Below, in pieces: positions 53,373 to 63,746 of a stretch of DNA of 64,000 bases. A program made the translations under genes and the position numbers. Under the pieces are notes generated by a model, which saw only the letters and a list, made by a program, of their open reading frames with translations, searched no databases and was not told the origin of the DNA. The stretch is from the NCBI RefSeq assembly GCF_055900595.2, contig NZ_CM148325.1. The stretch is one strand, 5' to 3'. The number at the start of each line of letters is the position of its first letter. Within the stretch, counting starts at the first letter, position 1.

Positions 53373-55025
<1,653 letters not shown>

Positions 55026-55096: not shown

Positions 55097-56410
<1,314 letters not shown>

Positions 56411-56430
56411 GCCTGACTTTATCTGATTTA

Positions 56431-56460
56431 AAAATGCCAGCCTTCGGGCTGGCATTTTTT
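56431..56460. terminator. Bidirectional rho-independent terminator between eno and the ygcG-like gene
   Basis: aaaaatgccagccttcgggctggcatttttt. Confidence 0.6.
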
Positions 56461-56469
56461 ATGGCTGAG

Positions 56470-57363
56470 TTACCAGCGGCCAGACGCGCCGCCACCGCCA
56501 GAAGAACCGCCACCTCCGCTAAATCCGCCGCCACTTGAGCCGCCACCGGAAGAGGATGAAGAAGAACCTTTTCTTGAAGCTCTTTCTTTACCGAGCGTCT
56601 TGTATTTGGCTCGTAGCTTTTTATTAACGATAAGCCAAAAGATAAGCAGCGCTACGATCGCAAAAGGCGTTAACATACCGCAGGCAACGATTAAATTCGT
56701 CCATGGTCCTGGCTCGGCAACATAGAGGAATACCATCCCGTAAATTGCGGCAGTGAGAGTTATCCAGGGTAGATTCGACGGATCGGTAAAAACAATAAAA
56801 TATGAAAGCACTGCCAGCAATATAAGTACAGCAAGCGAAAATGGGATAGGGGGATTGATACTGTAATAATTCCCCCTGCCTTCCGGTAATTCACCATTCA
56901 TCAGAAGTGCGCCGATATTTTCGCTTGCCAGTGTTACCCCCCCCATCAGGTCATCACTTTTGAAAGCAGGGATTAATATATCACGGATAATCTTTGCCGC
57001 TTGCAGGTCGGTAACCACCCCTTCCAGCCCATAGCCGACTTCTATACGAACAGCATGATCTTCCCAGGCAACCAGAAGTAAAATGCCATCGTTTCGCTGC
57101 TTATCTCCCAGTTTCCAGCTATCAAAAACGCGTGTTGCATATTGTTCAATGGTATCGTCTCCGGTGGATGGCACTATTAATACGGCAACCTGTGCCCGTG
57201 TTTTTTGTGTAATATCCTGCAGCTGTTGTGTCAGTGATTGTTGTTCAGACGTGCTTAAGGTACCAGTAATATCGGTCACATGTTGGCGCAGCTCCGGCAC
57301 AGCAATTTGCTGGGCAAGCACAGGAAGGCACCATAAAGTGAGTAGAAAAAGGATTATACGCAT
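56470..57363 (-). CDS. ygcG: TPM-domain membrane protein (YgcG-like) with Gly/Ser-rich C-terminal tail
   Basis: Signal peptide MRIILFLLTLWCLPVLA, TPM domain, two or more transmembrane segments, tail ...GGGGSSGGGGASGRW; ATG chosen at the fifth codon of the ORF track reading, since the track start codon is TTG. Confidence 0.8.
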   Translation of the reverse strand: MRIILFLLTLWCLPVLAQQIAVPELRQHVTDITGTLSTSEQQSLTQQLQDITQKTRAQVAVLIVPSTGDDTIEQYATRVFDSWKLGDKQRNDGILLLVAWEDHAVRIEVGYGLEGVVTDLQAAKIIRDILIPAFKSDDLMGGVTLASENIGALLMNGELPEGRGNYYSINPPIPFSLAVLILLAVLSYFIVFTDPSNLPWITLTAAIYGMVFLYVAEPGPWTNLIVACGMLTPFAIVALLIFWLIVNKKLRAKYKTLGKERASRKGSSSSSSGGGSSGGGFSGGGGSSGGGGASGRW

Positions 57364-57368
57364 AACGA

Positions 57369-58517
57369 TCACCAACGGCCGGATGAACCGCCACCGCCAG
57401 AAGAACCGCCGCCACCGCGGAAAGAGTTTTTCGACGAAGAGCGAGAATGAGCATTACGATTCCCCATTTTCCTGTTGATTTTATGTCCTGATCCCAGTTT
57501 AAGATTGCCAGTAAATTTGGCCACAATGATCAGCAGAACGATGCCAGCAATGGTTATTGGGCCGATAAAATGATCAATTAGCCCAATAATTGTTGAGATG
57601 AACGCAATATCTTTATTACTGGCAAATACCAGGCACCATCCCACAACAATTATCAGCAGCACGACAAACAATGAATTTCGTCCTGATTCACGAACCTGCG
57701 GAGCCTTCTTTTGTTTTTTCACTTTAGCGTTTTTATTTTGGGGGGCCAGCATCATAGGAAATGCGCGGCATATATTAAAAACTACCGCGAGACGCTGCCA
57801 GTAGATTGCTGCGAAAAATAAACTAAAACAAACGACCGATACCCGTCGAATGATGACATCGTTCTGAAAGCAGAAAAACCAGACCATAGGGGTAATCATC
57901 GATATCATCCATATGCCAGGCCCTGGATGGGTGGTAAATCGCCAGAGGACAACGATGGCAACGATCATCAGCAGTGTCCAGGCAAGACATGGCAGAGAGC
58001 GTTGCGGATTAGCAAACAGATGATTGGCTAAAGCATCCAAAGGGCTAAGATTCGCTTTTATATAGGTAAACTGTGCAATGCCTTCAATTCCCTGCGTTAA
58101 CCCGGAGAAGAGATTATTTTTTTTGAATTCCGGTTGCATATGGTAATGAACAATTTGCGCAGCTTGTTCCGGTGGCAGCATCTCTTCCAGTCCATGCCCA
58201 ATCTTCATTGACGCCAGCCCTTCCGGCCAAACGACGAGAATTAAGATACCTTCGCCGTACCGCTTCTCTCCAACAGGTTTCCAGTGATATAACCCGTAGC
58301 TTTGCGAGGCTGCAAGTTTAATGTCTTTACCCCCAGTGGTCGGCGTTACCAACACGGCAACCTGAAAGTGGTTTTGCTGCTCGAGAGTCTGTAATTGTTG
58401 AGTTAAAGCAGTTTGTTCTTCTGTCGTTAATGTCCCGGTTAAGTCAGTTACTGAAGGCAATTGTTCAGCGAATGCCTGGAAACCACATAGCATCAGAAGT
58501 AAGAGAAAAATACGCAT
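57369..58517 (-). CDS. TPM-domain membrane protein paralog (382 aa) with Lys-rich segment and Gly/Ser tail
   Basis: MRIFLLLLMLCGFQAFA signal peptide; divergent TPM domain; KNAKVKKQKK stretch; tail GGGGSSGGGGSSGRW; 5 bp from downstream ygcG start. Confidence 0.7.
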   Translation of the reverse strand: MRIFLLLLMLCGFQAFAEQLPSVTDLTGTLTTEEQTALTQQLQTLEQQNHFQVAVLVTPTTGGKDIKLAASQSYGLYHWKPVGEKRYGEGILILVVWPEGLASMKIGHGLEEMLPPEQAAQIVHYHMQPEFKKNNLFSGLTQGIEGIAQFTYIKANLSPLDALANHLFANPQRSLPCLAWTLLMIVAIVVLWRFTTHPGPGIWMISMITPMVWFFCFQNDVIIRRVSVVCFSLFFAAIYWQRLAVVFNICRAFPMMLAPQNKNAKVKKQKKAPQVRESGRNSLFVVLLIIVVGWCLVFASNKDIAFISTIIGLIDHFIGPITIAGIVLLIIVAKFTGNLKLGSGHKINRKMGNRNAHSRSSSKNSFRGGGGSSGGGGSSGRW

Positions 58518-58531
58518 TTCAATTCCTTTTG

Positions 58532-59464
58532 TTACCAGCGCCCGGAGGCGCCACCGCCGCCAGATGAACCGCCGCCGCCGCTGAAATTATCATTGTCAAA
58601 AGAGGATGAAGAGGAAGATGACGACGATGATGAAGAACGCCTGGAGGCCGAGTTACTTCTTTCGTAATGTGACGGTCGGTTGGCACTGCGCATCGAATCC
58701 CGAACCTTTTTGCCGAAGGGGGTAAAAGCGATGGCGACAGCCAGGAACGGTGTGGCGAAGCAGAGTAATGTTGCGAGTACTCCCCAGCTTCCGCTGAAAC
58801 CTGCTATAGGTAAAACAAAGGCCAGTACAATAGCTGTGAAGCAAATTAGTCCCAGCGTTTTGACATATCCTCTGGCGGAAATAAAGGTCAGTACTATTGC
58901 CCAGACTAACAAAGCCCACCAACCGTTAAAGGGCAAAGGGTGATCGGTCGGTGTTATCGTTGCTAAATTATTCCCCGTCAGACGATTATCAATATCGCTT
59001 ATTCCCTTTTGCAAGCCGCCAGCCAGGTCGCCATTTTTAAATGCCGGAATAATACTGTTGCGAATAATTTTCCCGGACTGCGCATCCGTAATAACGCCTT
59101 CCAGTCCGTAACCGACTTCAATACGCACGGTATGATCCTGCCAGGCGACTAACAGTAGAACGCCATCATCGCGGTCTTTATCACCCGGTTTCCAGCTATC
59201 GAATACCCGCGTAGCGTACTGCTCGATGGTTTCATCGCCCGTTGTTTCAACCACTAACACGACCAGTTGTGCGTGGCTTTTTTGCGTCAGCTCTTTAATC
59301 TGATTGGTCAACGTATTTACTTCATCGTTCGTCAATTTGCCGGTTAAGTCATTCACATACCTGGGTGATTCAGGTACTGGAATTTGTATGGCAAACACAG
59401 ATGAACAAAAGAAAGCCATAAGGAAGATAAAATTTCGCACAGGACTTCCTCGCTTAATGAGCAT
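58532..59464 (-). CDS. TPM-domain membrane protein paralog (310 aa) with poly-Ser and Gly/Ser tail
   Basis: TPM domain closely similar to the ygcG-like gene (…TIEQYATRVFDSWK…VRIEVGYGLEGV…); SSSSSSSSSSSS run; tail GGGGSSGGGGASGRW; overlaps lemA stop by 11 nt. Confidence 0.75.
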   Translation of the reverse strand: MLIKRGSPVRNFIFLMAFFCSSVFAIQIPVPESPRYVNDLTGKLTNDEVNTLTNQIKELTQKSHAQLVVLVVETTGDETIEQYATRVFDSWKPGDKDRDDGVLLLVAWQDHTVRIEVGYGLEGVITDAQSGKIIRNSIIPAFKNGDLAGGLQKGISDIDNRLTGNNLATITPTDHPLPFNGWWALLVWAIVLTFISARGYVKTLGLICFTAIVLAFVLPIAGFSGSWGVLATLLCFATPFLAVAIAFTPFGKKVRDSMRSANRPSHYERSNSASRRSSSSSSSSSSSSFDNDNFSGGGGSSGGGGASGRW

Positions 59465-60056
59465 TAGTATTCTGGCTAAAATCTATTGTCGGGGCTTTAC
59501 TCACAGCGGCGACATCATCCGGCAAATAATTTTTCTTTGGTGTGTAATCCATAACCTTTGCGGTTAACACTGCGGGGAATTTGCGGATAGTGACATTATA
59601 TTGTTCAATAGCTTTAATATATCTTCCTCGCGCAACGGCAATTCGATTTTCACTTCCTTCGAGCTGTACCATCAAATTTTGATAGAGTTCCTGGGCCTTT
59701 AGCTCAGGGTAACGTTCACTAATTATCGTTAACTGACCGAGAGTGCGAGACACCTGCGCCTGAGCTTGTTGCCAGGTTTGTAATTTTTGTTCATCTCCCG
59801 GAGTTTGCTGAAGAGCACTACTGGCGCGATTAGCCTGACTACGTGCCAATGTTACGGCTTCCAGTACCTCTTGTTCATGGCTGGAATAACCTTTAATACT
59901 GGCGACAAGATTAGGAATAAGATCGGCGCGACGTTGATATTGATTTAATACCTCAGACCAGGAAGCGTTAACCTGCTCATCATAGGTTTGAATATCGTTA
60001 TATCCACAGCCTGATAAATTGAAAATAAATATAATTACGATGAATGTTCTGAGCAT
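59454..60056 (-). CDS. lemA: LemA-family lipoprotein
   Basis: MLRTFIVIIFIFNLSGC lipobox; 200 aa; first gene of the lemA/TPM operon. Confidence 0.8.
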   Translation of the reverse strand: MLRTFIVIIFIFNLSGCGYNDIQTYDEQVNASWSEVLNQYQRRADLIPNLVASIKGYSSHEQEVLEAVTLARSQANRASSALQQTPGDEQKLQTWQQAQAQVSRTLGQLTIISERYPELKAQELYQNLMVQLEGSENRIAVARGRYIKAIEQYNVTIRKFPAVLTAKVMDYTPKKNYLPDDVAAVSKAPTIDFSQNTNAH

Positions 60057-60137
60057 GGTTAAATCCCTTTTAATTAATTCCTTAAAACATAATACGCCAC
60101 TTCATTTTATTCTTTATGATCTAATCCACTTTTTGCC

Positions 60138-61466
60138 CTGAGAGATCCCCTCATAATTTCCCCAAAACGTAACCATGTGTGAATAGATTTTGAGTAAGCA
60201 GGGTTGCAGCCACGAGTGAGTCTTCCCTTGTTATTGTGTAGCCAGAATGCCGCAAAACTTCCATGCCTAAGCGAACTGTTGAGAGTACGTTTCGATTTCT
60301 GACTGTGTTAGCCTGGAAGTGCTTGTCCCAACCTTGTTTCTGAGCATGAACGCCCGCAAGCCAACATGTTAGTTGAAGCATCAGGGCGATTAGCAGCATG
60401 ATATCAAAACGCTCTGAGCTGCTCGTTCGGCTATGGCGTAGGCCTAGTCCGTAGGCAGGACTTTTCAAGTCTCGGAAGGTTTCTTCAATCTGCATTCGCT
60501 TCGAATAGATATTAACAAGTTGTTTGGGTGTTCGAATTTCAACAGGTAAGTTAGTTGCTAGAATCCATGGCTCCTTTGCCGACGCTGAGTAGATTTTAGG
60601 TGACGGGTGGTGACAATGAGTCCGTGTCGAGCGCTGATTTTTTCGGCCTTTAGAGCGAGATTTATACAATAGAATTTGGCATGAGATTGGATTGCTTTTA
60701 GTCAGCCTCTTATAGCCTAAAGTCTTTGAGTGACTAGATGACATATCATGTAAGTTGCTGATAGGTTTCCAGTTTTCCGCTCCTAGGTCTGCATATTGTA
60801 CTTTTCCTCTTACTCGACTTAACCAGTACCAACCCAGCTTCTCAACGGATTTATACCATGGCACTTTAAAGCCAGCATCACTGACAATGAGCGGTGTGGT
60901 GTTACTCGGTAGAATGCTCGCAAGGTCGGCTAGAAATTGGTCATGAGCTTTCTTTGAACATTGCTCTGAAAGCGGGAACGCTTTCTCATAAAGAGTAACA
61001 GAACGACCGTGTAGTGCGACTGAAGCTCGCAATACCATAAGCCGTTTTTGCTCACGGATATCAGACCAGTCAACAAGTACAATGGGCATCGTATTGCCCG
61101 AACAGATAAAGCTAGCATGCCAACGGTATACAGCGAGTCGCTCTTTGTGGAGGTGACGATTACCTAACAATCGGTCGATTCGTTTGATGTTATGTTTTGT
61201 TCTCGCTTTGGTTGGCAGGTTACGGCCAAGTTCGGTAAGAGTGAGAGTTTTACAGTCAAGTAAGGCGTGGCAAGCCAACGTTAAGCTGTTGAGTCGTTTT
61301 AAGTGTAATTCGGGGCAGAATTGGTAAAGAGAGTCGTGTAAAATATCGAGTTCGCACATTTTGTTGTCTGATTATTGATTTTTGGCGAAACCATTTGATC
61401 ATATGACAAGATGTGTATCCACCTTAACTTAATGATTTTTACCAAAATCATTAGGGGATTCATCAG
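60138..61466 (-). mobile_element. IS10 (IS4 family), complete 1329 bp copy flanked by 9 bp target site duplication CTTTTTGCC
   Basis: Inside end ctgagagatcccctcataatttccccaaaacg at 60138; outside end (reverse complement ctgatgaatcccctaatgattttggtaaaaatcatt) at 61466; identical 9-mers at 60129-60137 and 61467-61475. Confidence 0.9.
60151..61359 (-). CDS. IS10 transposase
   Basis: 402 aa starting MCELDILHDSLYQFCPELHLKRLNSLTLACHALLDCKTLTLTELGRNLPTKARTKH, full length with no frameshift. Confidence 0.9.
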   Translation of the reverse strand: MCELDILHDSLYQFCPELHLKRLNSLTLACHALLDCKTLTLTELGRNLPTKARTKHNIKRIDRLLGNRHLHKERLAVYRWHASFICSGNTMPIVLVDWSDIREQKRLMVLRASVALHGRSVTLYEKAFPLSEQCSKKAHDQFLADLASILPSNTTPLIVSDAGFKVPWYKSVEKLGWYWLSRVRGKVQYADLGAENWKPISNLHDMSSSHSKTLGYKRLTKSNPISCQILLYKSRSKGRKNQRSTRTHCHHPSPKIYSASAKEPWILATNLPVEIRTPKQLVNIYSKRMQIEETFRDLKSPAYGLGLRHSRTSSSERFDIMLLIALMLQLTCWLAGVHAQKQGWDKHFQANTVRNRNVLSTVRLGMEVLRHSGYTITREDSLVAATLLTQNLFTHGYVLGKL

Positions 61467-61566
61467 CTTTTTGCCTTAAACCTGCCTGTAACAGAATGTT
61501 AATAAGACATGATTGTTGTGGCAGGATCTGCAATAATTAACAATTATCCACTTCACAGAGAATGCT

Positions 61567-62238
61567 ATGCAGTACCCGATTAACGAGATGTTCCAGACCC
61601 TGCAAGGTGAGGGTTACTTTACCGGCGTCCCCGCCATTTTTATTCGTTTACAGGGATGCCCGGTCGGCTGTGCCTGGTGCGACACCAAACACACCTGGGA
61701 AAAGCTTGAGGATCGGGAAGTCTCCCTTTTCAGCATTCTGGCGAAGACCAAAGAGAGTGATAAGTGGGGGGCGGCGAGCAGTGAAGATTTGCTGGCTGTC
61801 ATTGGTCGTCAGGGATACACCGCGCGGCATGTGGTGATTACGGGTGGTGAGCCTTGCATTCATGATTTGCTGCCACTGACTGACCTGCTCGAAAAGAACG
61901 GTTTTAGCTGCCAGATCGAAACCAGCGGTACTCATGAAGTACGCTGCACGCCGAATACCTGGGTTACCGTATCGCCAAAGCTGAACATGCGCGGCGGCTA
62001 TGAAGTGTTGTCACAGGCACTGGAACGAGCCAACGAAATCAAGCATCCAGTGGGACGCGTACGTGATATTGAAGCACTGGATGAACTACTGGCAACGCTG
62101 ACCGATGATAAACCACGAGTCATTGCACTGCAGCCAATTAGCCAGAAGGACGATGCCACACGTTTGTGCATTGAAACCTGTATTGCGCGTAACTGGCGTT
62201 TATCGATGCAAACACATAAATATTTAAATATTGCCTGA
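61567..62238 (+). CDS. queE: 7-carboxy-7-deazaguanine synthase (radical SAM)
   Basis: MQYPINEMFQTLQGEGYFTGVPAIFIRLQGCPVGCAWCDTKHTW; 223 aa. Confidence 0.9.
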   Translation: MQYPINEMFQTLQGEGYFTGVPAIFIRLQGCPVGCAWCDTKHTWEKLEDREVSLFSILAKTKESDKWGAASSEDLLAVIGRQGYTARHVVITGGEPCIHDLLPLTDLLEKNGFSCQIETSGTHEVRCTPNTWVTVSPKLNMRGGYEVLSQALERANEIKHPVGRVRDIEALDELLATLTDDKPRVIALQPISQKDDATRLCIETCIARNWRLSMQTHKYLNIA

Positions 62239-62576: not shown

Positions 62577-63154
62577 GAGTTCCCCACGTCAGCGGGGATA
62601 AACCTTGCTCGATGCGGGCGTTAACTTTTTTATAGGCGAGTTCCCCGCGCCAGCGGGGATAAACCGCGTAATTTTGTACGCTCAACACGTAACTAAATGA
62701 GTTCCCCGCGCCAGCGGGGATAAACCGATCACCAGTGCGGATTGTTCAAATAGTGCCTGGAGTTCCCCGCGCCAGCGGGGATAAACCGAGAGCTATATCG
62801 CAGCGTTTAACTGGATGACAGAGTTCCCCGCGCCAGCGGGGATAAACCGGTGTTTTTTGCCATCTGAACTGTGGCACGCCGGAGTTCCCCGCGCCAGCGG
62901 GGATAAACCGTCTATAATGTCTCATCCGGGGTTAATTCAATCGAGTTCCCCGCGCCAGCGGGGATAAACCGATCAGCCCCACATCCGGTTTTGCCAGCAA
63001 CGTGAGTTCCCCGCGCCAGCGGGGATAAACCGTAAGATGATCTCACGGAATTGAACGAACTACGGAGTTCCCCGCGCTAGCGGGGATAAACCGGACACAG
63101 AGCGCCGCTATAGCGCCTATGCCAAGAGTTCCCCGCACCAGCGGGAATAAACCA
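62577..63154 (+). CRISPR. Type I-E CRISPR array, 10 repeats and 9 spacers of 32 nt (61 bp period)
   Basis: Repeat GAGTTCCCCGCGCCAGCGGGGATAAACCG at 62638, 62699, 62760, 62821, 62882, 62943, 63004; degenerate copies at 62577, 63065 and 63126. Confidence 0.9.
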
Positions 63155-63608
63155 CCATATAACCCGTTATCTCTTTCTCAAGTTTTTATATTAGCAGTAC
63201 TCGTATTAAGCAACATATCCACGTAACACCTCATGTTCAAAATAGCTCTCCATATATGAGAAGTTCACAATTATCGATACAAAAAATCAAATTTAATTAA
63301 AGTGTTAGTTGTATAATACTTAAATCATTAAGAAATTATCATATATTATTTTTTTAATATTGAATTGATGTTTGTTAATTTTTTCTTTAGGATAATAGTT
63401 TGTTTTTTAAGCTTATTATTCATTGATTAAGTAATAAATCTGGAAATTTGTCTTTGTTTTGAGGCTAATGAGTGATTTTACATAATCGCCTCTATAGGCT
63501 GTTGATGAATAGTTCTTATGAATAAAGATATCCAGTTCATACTTTAAGTGAAAATTGATAAAGTGCGATTCGTATTGTCTTTTATTCTAATGACATCGAG
63601 TGTAGTTA

Positions 63609-63746
63609 ATATTCCTTGTAAAAACAGGGATAAACCGAACTAGTTAAAGTTTTTATTATGTTCCCTGCATCAGCGGGGATAAACCGGACTTGTTATCATT
63701 TTTTAAGTTGTCGAACTTATGTTCCCCGCGCCAGCGGGGATAACCA
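63609..63746 (+). CRISPR. Second, degenerate mini-array (3 repeat-like units) preceded by its own AT-rich leader
   Basis: ...cagggataaaccg / atgttccctgcatcagcggggataaaccg / 32 nt spacer / atgttccccgcgccagcggggataacc; AT-rich 63160-63600 upstream. Confidence 0.6.

Follow-up and report, generated by a model that had tools for sequence, protein, structure and literature searches.

A four-gene lemA/TPM operon between eno and queE of Escherichia coli is a lineage-specific variant of the lemA-ygcG module

What are the additional genes that some strains of Escherichia coli carry between eno and queE, how are they related to the ygcG locus of K-12, and what might their products do? The question was raised by a 64,000-nucleotide stretch of contig NZ_CM148325.1 (NCBI RefSeq assembly GCF_055900595.2), hereafter the window, in which pyrG (53388-55025, plus strand) and eno (55112-56410, plus strand) are followed by four minus-strand open reading frames (ORFs) at 56470-60056, by the transposase gene of an IS4-family insertion sequence (IS), and by queE (61567-62238, plus strand). 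An initial annotation, made by a model from the sequence, had read the four ORFs as a lemA/TPM operon with three paralogous TPM-domain genes, and this reading was borne out by the intact ORFs and by their Pfam matches, one to LemA and three to TPM. The interval holds an intact and correctly delimited four-gene lemA/TPM operon, which represents a common alternative to the ygcG locus of K-12, is routinely annotated, and is not a new kind of system. We are highly confident of its identity as the long haplotype of this locus, an Escherichia-lineage expansion of a module composed of lemA and a YgcG-family TPM gene. The operon is flanked by eno and, across an IS10 element, by queE, and the same flanks were found in IS-free strains.

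Profile searches against Pfam confirmed the assignment of each gene. The first, lemA (59454-60056, minus strand), encodes a protein of 200 amino acids (aa) that matches PF04011 (E 2.1e-48) over model positions 1-149 of 149. It is followed on the same strand by TPM-310 (58532-59464), TPM-382 (57369-58517) and TPM-301 (56470-57375), the products of which match PF04536 with E values of 7.1e-41, 2.2e-22 and 1.3e-38, respectively, in all three cases over model positions 1-124 of 125. No internal stop codons or frameshifts were found in the four ORFs of the window copy. The initial annotation had allowed for misread frameshifts and pseudogenes; all four ORFs proved complete, and since their ratios of nonsynonymous to synonymous substitution rates (dN/dS, see below) are well below 1 in the deeper comparisons, a pseudogene reading was ruled out for the window.

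The genes had been described as translationally coupled, with an 11-nucleotide (nt) overlap and gaps of 15 and 5 nt. The tight spacing stood, and the individual distances turned out to depend in part on the start codons. TPM-310 overlaps lemA by 11 nt if it starts at ATG 59464, and is separated from it by 13 nt if it starts at GTG 59440; the latter is the likelier start, giving a protein of 302 aa, because it is preceded by the Shine-Dalgarno sequence GAGGAAG and was chosen by the Prokaryotic Genome Annotation Pipeline (PGAP) in the 99.9%-identical strain Z0117EC0005. The gap between TPM-310 and TPM-382 is 14 nt, not 15, and contains the Shine-Dalgarno sequence AAGGAA, while TPM-382 and TPM-301 are joined by a GTGA stop/start overlap (GTG 57372) or, with ATG 57363, separated by the 5 nt described. 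The four genes are thus closely coupled whichever start codons are used. A bidirectional intrinsic terminator serving both eno and the operon lies at 56430-56459, 10 nt past the TPM-301 stop codon. Its 13-bp GC-rich stem is flanked by an A-run and a U-run, and its fold of -23.4 kcal/mol (z = -6.3) was not equalled by any of 200 shuffled sequences.

All three TPM proteins were found by hydropathy analysis to have a signal peptide of the cleavable type, a TPM domain, transmembrane (TM) segments and a C-terminal tail, which, together with an AlphaFold model of TPM-382, bears out the architecture proposed in the initial annotation. Three TM segments were recognised in each of TPM-310, TPM-301 and K-12 YgcG, the tails of which comprise 45-63 residues with 4-9 Lys/Arg, 10-17 Gly and 11-22 Ser. 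Since the TPM domain is outside, the number of TM segments is odd and the positive-inside rule points the same way, the tail is placed in the cytoplasm; the predicted topology is thus a periplasmic TPM domain, TM helices in the inner membrane and a cytoplasmic tail. In the TPM-382 model, the TPM domain has a predicted local distance difference test score (pLDDT) of 80-90 and the order of secondary structure elements of the TPM fold. Membrane helices follow at residues 171-194, 200-216, 221-251, 280-299 and 306-335, with a disordered K/R-rich loop at 252-279 and a disordered tail at 336-382; the pLDDT of this membrane part is only 50-70, and the fold comparison was confined to other parts. According to the model, TPM-382 would amount to the canonical three-TM module extended by a cytoplasmic loop and an additional TM hairpin.

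The domain itself resembles structures already solved. TPM-310 matches the sequence of BA41 (PDB ID: 5ANP) with an E value of 2.9e-19, and its domain model superposes on 5ANP, 7TBR and 2KW7 with template modelling scores (TM-scores) of 0.75-0.90 (0.88-0.90 for 5ANP). We also compared 29 columns of the TPM domain, in each of which conservation among 60 reference proteins is 90% or more. Of these positions, 25 are kept in both TPM-310 and TPM-301 and 26 in K-12 YgcG, within the range of 22-29 seen in the references, whereas TPM-382 keeps 16, fewer than any of the 60, with many charged residues replaced. By this measure TPM-382 can be regarded as a degenerate, divergent paralog. The NCBIfam model of Psb32 (NF047379) scored 34-35 bits for TPM-310 and TPM-301, far from its cutoff of 160, and did not match TPM-382. 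A match of the TPM-301 C-terminus (56470-56640, residues 238-295) to the 'YxzE-like putative bacteriocin' family (PF25184, E 3.8e-4) covers a TM helix and the Gly-rich tail and was set aside as compositional, although it could hint that such a TM-plus-Gly-tail module also exists in the form of stand-alone small proteins.

The tails of the three paralogs are closely similar. TPM-310 and TPM-301 both end in the 15 residues GGGGSSGGGGASGRW and TPM-382 in GGGGSSGGGGSSGRW, and the corresponding segments of 15 codons and the stop codon lie on the minus strand at 58532-58579 (TPM-310), 57369-57416 (TPM-382) and 56470-56517 (TPM-301). The initial annotation had noted the common GGGGSSGGGG(A/S)SGRW end, which is indeed present, and had called the gene ends near-identical at the DNA level, a description that fits the peptide only, since pairs of the three 3' ends agree at 81-85% of DNA positions over 48-54 nt. 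Nor do the tails mark a homogenisation of paralogs or a special repeat, given that the same C-terminus is found across proteobacteria. Distant homologs of TPM-382 from Pseudomonas, Burkholderia, Bordetella, Bartonella, Methylocaldum, Dyella, Inquilinus and Advenella end in F(R/S)GGGGSSGGGGASG(R/S/G)W, a C-terminus of the form F(R/S)GGGGxxGGGGASGxW also occurs in Bradyrhizobium, Xanthomonas and others, and nearly all TPM genes that follow lemA in a scan of one genome per species end in GGGGxxGGGGASGxW. The motif is common to the window proteins and the 60 reference proteins of other proteobacteria, and it is a family-wide C-terminal motif of alpha-, beta- and gamma-proteobacteria, not a local repeat; in the window proteins, the terminal peptide of ~17 residues reads F(R/S)GGGGSSGGGG(A/S)SGRW-COOH. 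Conservation of the peptide and the Gly codons that it requires explain why the three 3' ends are alike, and gene conversion is not needed; with the same peptide in distant proteobacteria and a DNA identity of only 81-85%, gene conversion or a recent repeat was ruled out. A full-text search found no mention of the tail peptide in the searchable literature. In Escherichia albertii NBRC 107761, the TPM-382 ortholog (locus L008, 3844-4983) ends in GGGGASGR followed by a stop codon, the terminal Trp having been lost naturally.

To what extent is the operon itself conserved? We assembled a locus set from 80 proteobacterial species (one genome per species, scanned with the LemA profile) and three loci from protein look-ups, of which the 72 lemA loci with at least 1.2 kb of downstream sequence were used for counts. 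A TPM gene lies immediately downstream of lemA in 65 of the 72, often with a 4-nt overlap, and 60 of the 72 have exactly one tailed TPM gene. More than one was found only in E. albertii (three) and Klebsiella spallanzanii (two), so that the three tailed paralogs of the window are best read as an Escherichia-lineage expansion of a conserved two-gene module. The neighbourhoods of the pair are unrelated: it follows dsbB in Pseudomonas aeruginosa and lies between nuo genes and gyrB in Bartonella. A third gene, present in 17 of the 65 loci (among them L016, L020, L023, L027, L031, L032, L041, L043 and L045), codes for a short TPM protein (~165 aa) that lacks a signal peptide, ends in NELPDxPVLL and is probably cytoplasmic; no such short TPM gene was found in E. 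coli.

Within E. coli, the eno-queE interval was surveyed in 5,426 complete genomes. Three haplotypes jointly account for about 99% of them: the K-12 type with yqcG and ygcG (3,926 genomes at a coverage of at least 80%), the four-gene form, recognised by the presence of TPM-382 (1,104 genomes), and a form with lemA, one TPM gene and an unrelated membrane ORF of 120 aa (340 genomes). About one complete E. coli genome in five has the four-gene form, carriers of which include O157:H7 and IHE3034; TPM-382 is full-length in 1,102 genomes, and lemA is present in 1,454, CFT073 among them. The interval is thus polymorphic in the presence/absence manner that the initial annotation had envisaged, and the arrangement is neither universal nor characterised: the four-gene form is common, and no functional study of it was found. 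With respect to K-12, the accessory status that had been proposed for the operon agrees with these counts. The accompanying claim, that K-12 carries only ygcG and lacks the other three genes, did not hold in that form, as K-12 has a different haplotype that includes yqcG, and its YgcG is only 41% identical to TPM-301.

The relationship between the two versions could be traced further. K-12 YgcG is 41% identical to TPM-301, 38% to TPM-310 and 32% to TPM-382, and the identity to TPM-301 rises to 57% in the TPM domain alone; by position and by similarity, TPM-301 is the counterpart and closest paralog of K-12 ygcG. The homology between K-12 and the window resumes only in the last ~80 nt of ygcG and downstream of it, with 94.8% identity over 252 nt. 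K-12 therefore carries a deeply diverged haplotype and not a subset of the four genes. At the other end of the locus, the yqcG-start region of K-12 (L001, 2557-2727) is 78% identical over 99 nt to the lemA-start region of the window (60022-60120), and the peptide VKTFTKIIFIF of YqcG aligns with LRTFIVIIFIF of LemA. Because both the start regions and the N-terminal peptides correspond, the 46-aa protein YqcG, which RefSeq names 'cell envelope stress response protein', appears to be a decayed remnant of the 5' end of lemA.

The origin of the three paralogs was judged from a table of nearest-neighbour identities. The TPM domains of TPM-310, TPM-301, K-12 YgcG and Klebsiella TPM294 are 57-65% identical to one another, compared with 48-55% to those of other proteobacteria, and TPM-382 shows the same tendency at a lower level (41-43% to enterobacterial TPM proteins from the same locus, 38% to others). 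Since the closest relatives of each paralog are enterobacterial TPM proteins at the same locus, the table points to local tandem duplication within the Enterobacteriaceae. Orthologs of all three are present in E. albertii, with domain identities of 85%, 76% and 92%, so that the expansion is older than the split between E. coli and E. albertii; full-length relatives of TPM-382 were found only in Escherichia. The eno-queE slot of K. spallanzanii (L006, 4537-8400) contains lemA, one TPM gene and a gene for a 285-aa protein (P0033) with a signal peptide, membrane part and tail like those of TPM-382 and no TPM domain. A type I-E-like array of clustered regularly interspaced short palindromic repeats (CRISPR) lies between this cluster and eno.

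Selection on the genes was estimated by comparing the window allele with those of O157:H7, IHE3034 and E. albertii. The dN/dS values are 0.04-0.10 for lemA (0.08-0.10 in the deeper comparisons) and 0.15-0.28 for the TPM genes; for the O157-IHE3034 pair, which differs by few substitutions, they are noisier. The deeper comparisons, with ratios well below 1, indicate that all four genes are functional, TPM-382 being the least constrained. Nucleotide identity between alleles is 89-95% in the operon versus 98.6-98.8% in eno, and dS within E. coli is 0.17-0.32 for the operon, 0.14-0.22 for queE and 0.05-0.06 for eno. Positive or diversifying selection behind this divergence is unsupported: the dS of the operon is like that of queE, and dN/dS is 0.08-0.28 in the deeper comparisons. 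The high nucleotide divergence is that of old alleles in a deep-coalescence region.

The partner of the TPM proteins, LemA, begins with MLRTFIVIIFIFNLSGC, a lipoprotein signal with the lipobox L-S-G-C and the acceptor residue Cys17. An alignment of 16 LemA sequences from proteobacteria, with identities of 42-82%, shows no variation at Gly16 and Cys17, and hydropathy reveals a hydrophobic N-terminus, as expected of a membrane anchor in front of a helical bundle. LemA matches the Thermotoga LemA structure (PDB ID: 2ETD) with an E value of 7.5e-33, and its modelled part is all-helical and superposes on 2ETD with a TM-score of 0.80. Given the lipobox signal and the invariant Gly and Cys, the helical domain would be periplasmic and held by lipid, and LemA is predicted to be a lipid-anchored periplasmic lipoprotein with a four-helix bundle. 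The NCBIfam model of MamQ (NF040966) scored 91.2 bits against a cutoff of 250, which makes LemA a homolog, not an equivalog, of MamQ. LemA also matches PHROG 1383 ('virion structural protein', E 4e-22); LemA-like proteins therefore occur in phage genomes as well.

From these features, a hypothesis regarding the function may be put forward. The initial annotation had singled out the operon as an uncharacterised envelope-associated system. The topology predictions agree with this, full-text searches (including ygcG, yqcG and the O157 locus tags) found no functional study of LemA/TPM in Enterobacteria, and an envelope-associated role is the most reasonable reading. More specifically, we give even chances to a LemA/TPM complex at the inner membrane that acts as a non-enzymatic scaffold in envelope maintenance. 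The four genes would be co-transcribed and translationally coupled, which would fix the proportions of their products. LemA, as a lipoprotein, would hold its helical bundle in the periplasm against a membrane, and the TPM proteins would be exported by their signal peptides, leaving the TPM domain in the periplasm and anchored by three TM helices, or five in TPM-382. The products would then assemble into a complex at the inner membrane that helps, as a scaffold or chaperone, to build or repair either the membrane or complexes embedded in it when the envelope is stressed. In such a complex LemA would contribute a membrane-apposed helical bundle and the TPM domains surfaces for binding clients or partners; TPM-310 and TPM-301 would be the canonical subunits and TPM-382 a specialised one, probably not binding a ligand, while the cytoplasmic tail peptide may dock a cytoplasmic partner. 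The system would be dispensable, most E. coli keeping a single TPM protein and no LemA. We propose this mechanism with modest confidence.

A LemA/TPM complex is preferred because of the strict gene pairing, the coupling of the genes, and parallels in structures and in the literature. Among the structures that resemble the TPM model, some are domains with in-vitro data only, such as BA41 and BA42, and others are stoichiometric partners of membrane complexes, namely the photosystem II (PSII) assembly factor Psb32 (8C7I), AtTLP18.3, the TPM subunit of the CIII2CIV2 supercomplex of mycobacteria (6ADQ_J, 8OVC_V) and Chlamydomonas LMTP1. The TPM protein CcoZ of Campylobacter is required for normal activity of the cbb3 oxidase (PMC8267372), and on comparative genomic grounds TPM has been argued to be a chaperone-like assembly domain and not a phosphatase (PMC11237479; PMC12419801). 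LemA-like domains have been described as membrane-apposed scaffolds or remodelling factors, both in MamQ (PMC3905215) and in a model of Mycobacterium leprae ML0451c with a predicted PimA-ML0451c-EphE complex (bioRxiv 10.64898/2026.07.15.738315), and lemA and a TPM gene are induced together in a Flavobacterium columnare sppA mutant with membrane stress (PMC13236525). A connection with stress is also suggested by K-12, where the lemA remnant YqcG bears the name of an envelope stress protein and the shared promoter region binds phosphorylated PhoP and RNA polymerase with RpoS. A bolder version, in which the C-terminal peptide acts as a docking signal between a LemA/TPM sensor or scaffold in the periplasm and a machine in the cytoplasm, lemA-ygcG being a trans-membrane module of envelope surveillance or repair and the Escherichia version a hetero-oligomer with a pseudo-domain subunit, is speculative, and we would not expect it to prove right.

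Several observations weigh against the scaffold proposal. The residues that follow Cys17 of LemA (codon region 60003-60005) are G-Y-N. In E. coli, a lipoprotein without Asp at position +2 is sorted to the outer membrane by the localisation of lipoproteins (Lol) system, so that LemA, which lacks this Lol-avoidance signal, is predicted in the outer membrane, apart from the inner-membrane TPM proteins. A direct LemA-TPM contact was modelled with AlphaFold on LemA fused through a linker to TPM-310, with 34 paired sequences; the predicted TM-score (pTM) of 0.62 and the five discordant models, with mean pLDDT of 64-78, speak neither for nor against it. No client complex is encoded nearby, the flanking eno, queE and pyrG being unrelated, and no experiment on this operon was found in the searchable literature. 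Purified TPM domains of BA41, BA42 and AtTLP18.3 reportedly have weak phosphatase or ATPase activity in vitro. lemA has been lost from 73% of complete E. coli genomes, which shows that the system is dispensable, and a true nonsense codon interrupts the third TM segment of the TPM-310 ortholog of O157:H7 TW14359. This truncated protein may be the reference behind an annotation artefact, in which PGAP flags intact TPM-310 orthologs as 'incomplete, missing C-terminus' (L003, 3970-4641; L089, 4935-5606; L088, 4713-5630), although their ORFs are complete. With regard to the geometry of LemA, we also observed that its helix begins at mature residue 3, while its predicted partners are inner-membrane proteins.

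The activities measured in vitro lend themselves to an enzymatic explanation, in which the TPM proteins are a set of metal-dependent periplasmic phosphatases or nucleotidases that act on phospho-substrates, with different substrates for the paralogs and LemA as an accessory anchor. In its favour, Pfam calls the family TPM_phosphatase, BA42 and AtTLP18.3 have been reported as weak phosphatases, and TPM-310 and TPM-301 retain 25 of the 29 conserved positions, which are mostly charged. We nevertheless consider this explanation unlikely. Two comparative analyses judge the phosphatase assignment to be so, TPM proteins of known biology either belong to membrane complexes as stoichiometric subunits or take part in assembling them, and an enzyme set would leave the invariant cytoplasmic tail without a role. 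Moreover, TPM-382 has lost 13 of the 29 conserved positions, acidic and basic ones included, and yet purifying selection still acts on it (in the deeper comparisons, dN/dS is 0.2-0.3), a combination that would fit binding or scaffolding better than catalysis. The tail is central to a different explanation, which we rate as no less unlikely: a trans-membrane envelope sensor, in which the LemA and TPM domains sense the periplasm or the membrane and the tail signals to a cytoplasmic partner, comparable to RcsF-IgaA or NlpE-CpxA. It would account for the sequence of periplasmic domain, TM helices, disordered linker and invariant terminal peptide, and for LemA being a lipoprotein; the promoter region is linked to the PhoP and RpoS regulons in K-12, and the cytoplasmic TPM protein encoded by the third gene in 17 of 65 loci would be a possible partner. 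That candidate gene is absent from E. coli, however, the loci examined show no linkage of a kinase, sigma/anti-sigma factor or transcription factor to the module, and the tail comprises only ~17 conserved residues of low complexity.

Two further explanations concern the history of the locus. Its three-haplotype presence/absence polymorphism, the contrast in nucleotide identity with eno, the CRISPR array 340 bp beyond queE and the match of LemA to a PHROG annotated as a virion structural protein might suggest an island for anti-phage or inter-bacterial conflict acting at the envelope. This we regard as highly improbable: the lemA-TPM pair lies in housekeeping contexts elsewhere (nuo/gyrB in Bartonella, dsbB in Pseudomonas), the CRISPR adjacency is common to all haplotypes, including that of K-12, nothing marks the cluster as a mobile element apart from IS10, which arrived later, and the operon, with a dS similar to that of queE and dN/dS well below 1, shows no diversifying selection. 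The four proteins had no profile match in PADLOC-DB 2.0 at E <= 0.01 and only LemA matched PHROGs, and a defence system was rejected. Alternatively, the operon may be an evolutionary leftover, a neutral duplication in decay with no function beyond that of a single YgcG. The absence of lemA from 73% of complete genomes, with a mere remnant in K-12, would agree with decay, as would the premature stop in TPM-310 of O157:H7 TW14359, the missing terminal Trp codon in the TPM-382 ortholog of E. albertii NBRC 107761, the degenerate state of TPM-382 and the recurrent IS1 and IS10 insertions at the locus. Such a leftover is very doubtful in view of the four ORFs that are intact here, the 1,102 genomes with full-length TPM-382, the retention of the invariant tail in all three paralogs, and an age greater than that of the E. 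coli/E. albertii split under purifying selection (dN/dS 0.15-0.28 in the deeper comparisons).

The upstream region of the operon in this strain has been altered by IS10. Only 81 bp of the native region remain in front of the lemA ATG (60057-60137, minus strand), containing the Shine-Dalgarno sequence AAGGGA and, at 60089-60094, a -10-like TATTAT that lacks a good -35 element; a simple scan found no consensus sigma-70 promoter in these 81 bp. The adjoining IS10 (ISVsa5-type, 1,329 bp, 60138-61466, minus strand) encodes an IS4-family transposase (NF033591, E 1.5e-120) and is bordered by the 9-bp target duplication CTTTTTGCC at 60129-60137 and 61467-61475. Its inside end and the reading direction of its transposase gene face lemA, its outside end faces queE, and it lies 100 bp upstream of the latter gene, cutting lemA off from the rest of the intergenic region. 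The antisense RNA-OUT (RF00240, 97 bits with Rfam) is on the plus strand at 61352-61421, so that the outward promoter of the element (pOUT) is directed at queE. The element is missing in the otherwise 99.9%-identical strain L003; it is a later, strain-specific insertion and does not belong to the system. In K-12, phosphorylated PhoP binds to the homologous stretch of intergenic DNA, deletion of yqcG raises queE expression, and over-expression of queE blocks cell division (PMC4974570); a chromatin immunoprecipitation peak of RNA polymerase with RpoS has been reported in the same region (PMC4447067). As IS10 splits the region that binds these factors in K-12, it probably alters the regulation of both divergent units, lemA and queE, in this strain. 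IS1 was observed in or next to ygcG in several K-12-type strains (E. coli HS, AR_0061, TF5 and others), which, together with the IS10 described here, suggests that the interval is a recurrent IS target.

Beyond queE, a type I-E CRISPR array extends over 62579-63745; its 12 repeat matches recur every 61 bp and fall into two blocks. The initial annotation had taken the proximity of a CRISPR locus and an IS as a pointer to a special system. Both neighbours exist, but neither supports that use: IS10 is strain-specific, and the array also follows queE in K-12 and in both other IS-free strains for which it was annotated. The CRISPR adjacency is ancestral synteny common to K-12, with nothing specific to the operon.

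LemA and TPM ('YgcG') constitute one of the most widespread conserved bacterial gene pairs without an assigned function, and the natural alleles of E. coli, with no LemA and one TPM (K-12), one LemA with one TPM, or one LemA with three TPM proteins, make the module genetically tractable in the most thoroughly studied organism. The present analysis also explains the origin of K-12 YqcG as a putative lemA remnant and corrects a recurring RefSeq artefact, the flagging of intact TPM-310 orthologs as partial. If the module merely fine-tunes envelope homeostasis, its interest is ordinary; if the tail is a new signalling or docking motif, it matters more.

Compared with known systems, the operon is closest to yqcG-ygcG of K-12, with which it shares the eno-queE slot, the terminator, the distance to the CRISPR array and, in YgcG, a signal peptide, a TPM domain, three TM helices and the tail GGGGSSGGGGASGRW, whereas K-12 has a single TPM gene where the window has three, and lacks a functional lemA. 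The canonical lemA-TPM pair of P. aeruginosa and Bartonella has the same invariant lipobox and a tailed TPM gene next to lemA, often with overlapping stop and start codons. It differs in having one tailed TPM gene (60 of 72 loci), joined in 17 of 65 loci by the ~165-aa TPM gene, while the window has three tailed genes, among them a paralog with five predicted TM helices and a degenerate domain, and no short one. BA41 and BA42 of Bizionia argentinensis (5ANP, 4OA3, 2LT2) belong to another phylum, and their reported ATPase/ADPase or phosphatase activity was observed only in vitro, although the modelled TPM-310 domain finds its best structural match in BA41, at 34% identity. The TPM subunits and assembly factors of membrane complexes, such as Psb32/TLP18.3 of PSII, that of CIII2CIV2, and CcoZ, share the fold (Foldseek probability 1.0) and an extracytoplasmic TPM domain on an energy-transducing membrane; TM-scores normalised to the target are 0.67-0.72 for TLP18.3 and the supercomplex subunit, and Psb32 (8C7I) was matched with an E value of 4e-5. 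They are only 13-15% identical to the TPM model, have known client complexes and, as far as examined, lack both a LemA partner and a Gly-rich terminal peptide. MamQ has a homologous LemA domain (NCBIfam E 6e-26, residues 5-192) with an N-terminal anchor and the bundle on the non-cytoplasmic side, but its anchor is a TM segment and not a lipobox, it belongs to the magnetosome island, and no TPM pairing is mentioned in the sources read. From YdjH of Bacillus subtilis, a PspA-linked TPM protein of the ydjFGHI type, the present system is set apart by its LemA partner and by the absence of pspA, band-7 and zinc-ribbon neighbours. Seen against all of these, the four-gene form is a lineage-specific, three-paralog variant of the conserved lemA-ygcG module.

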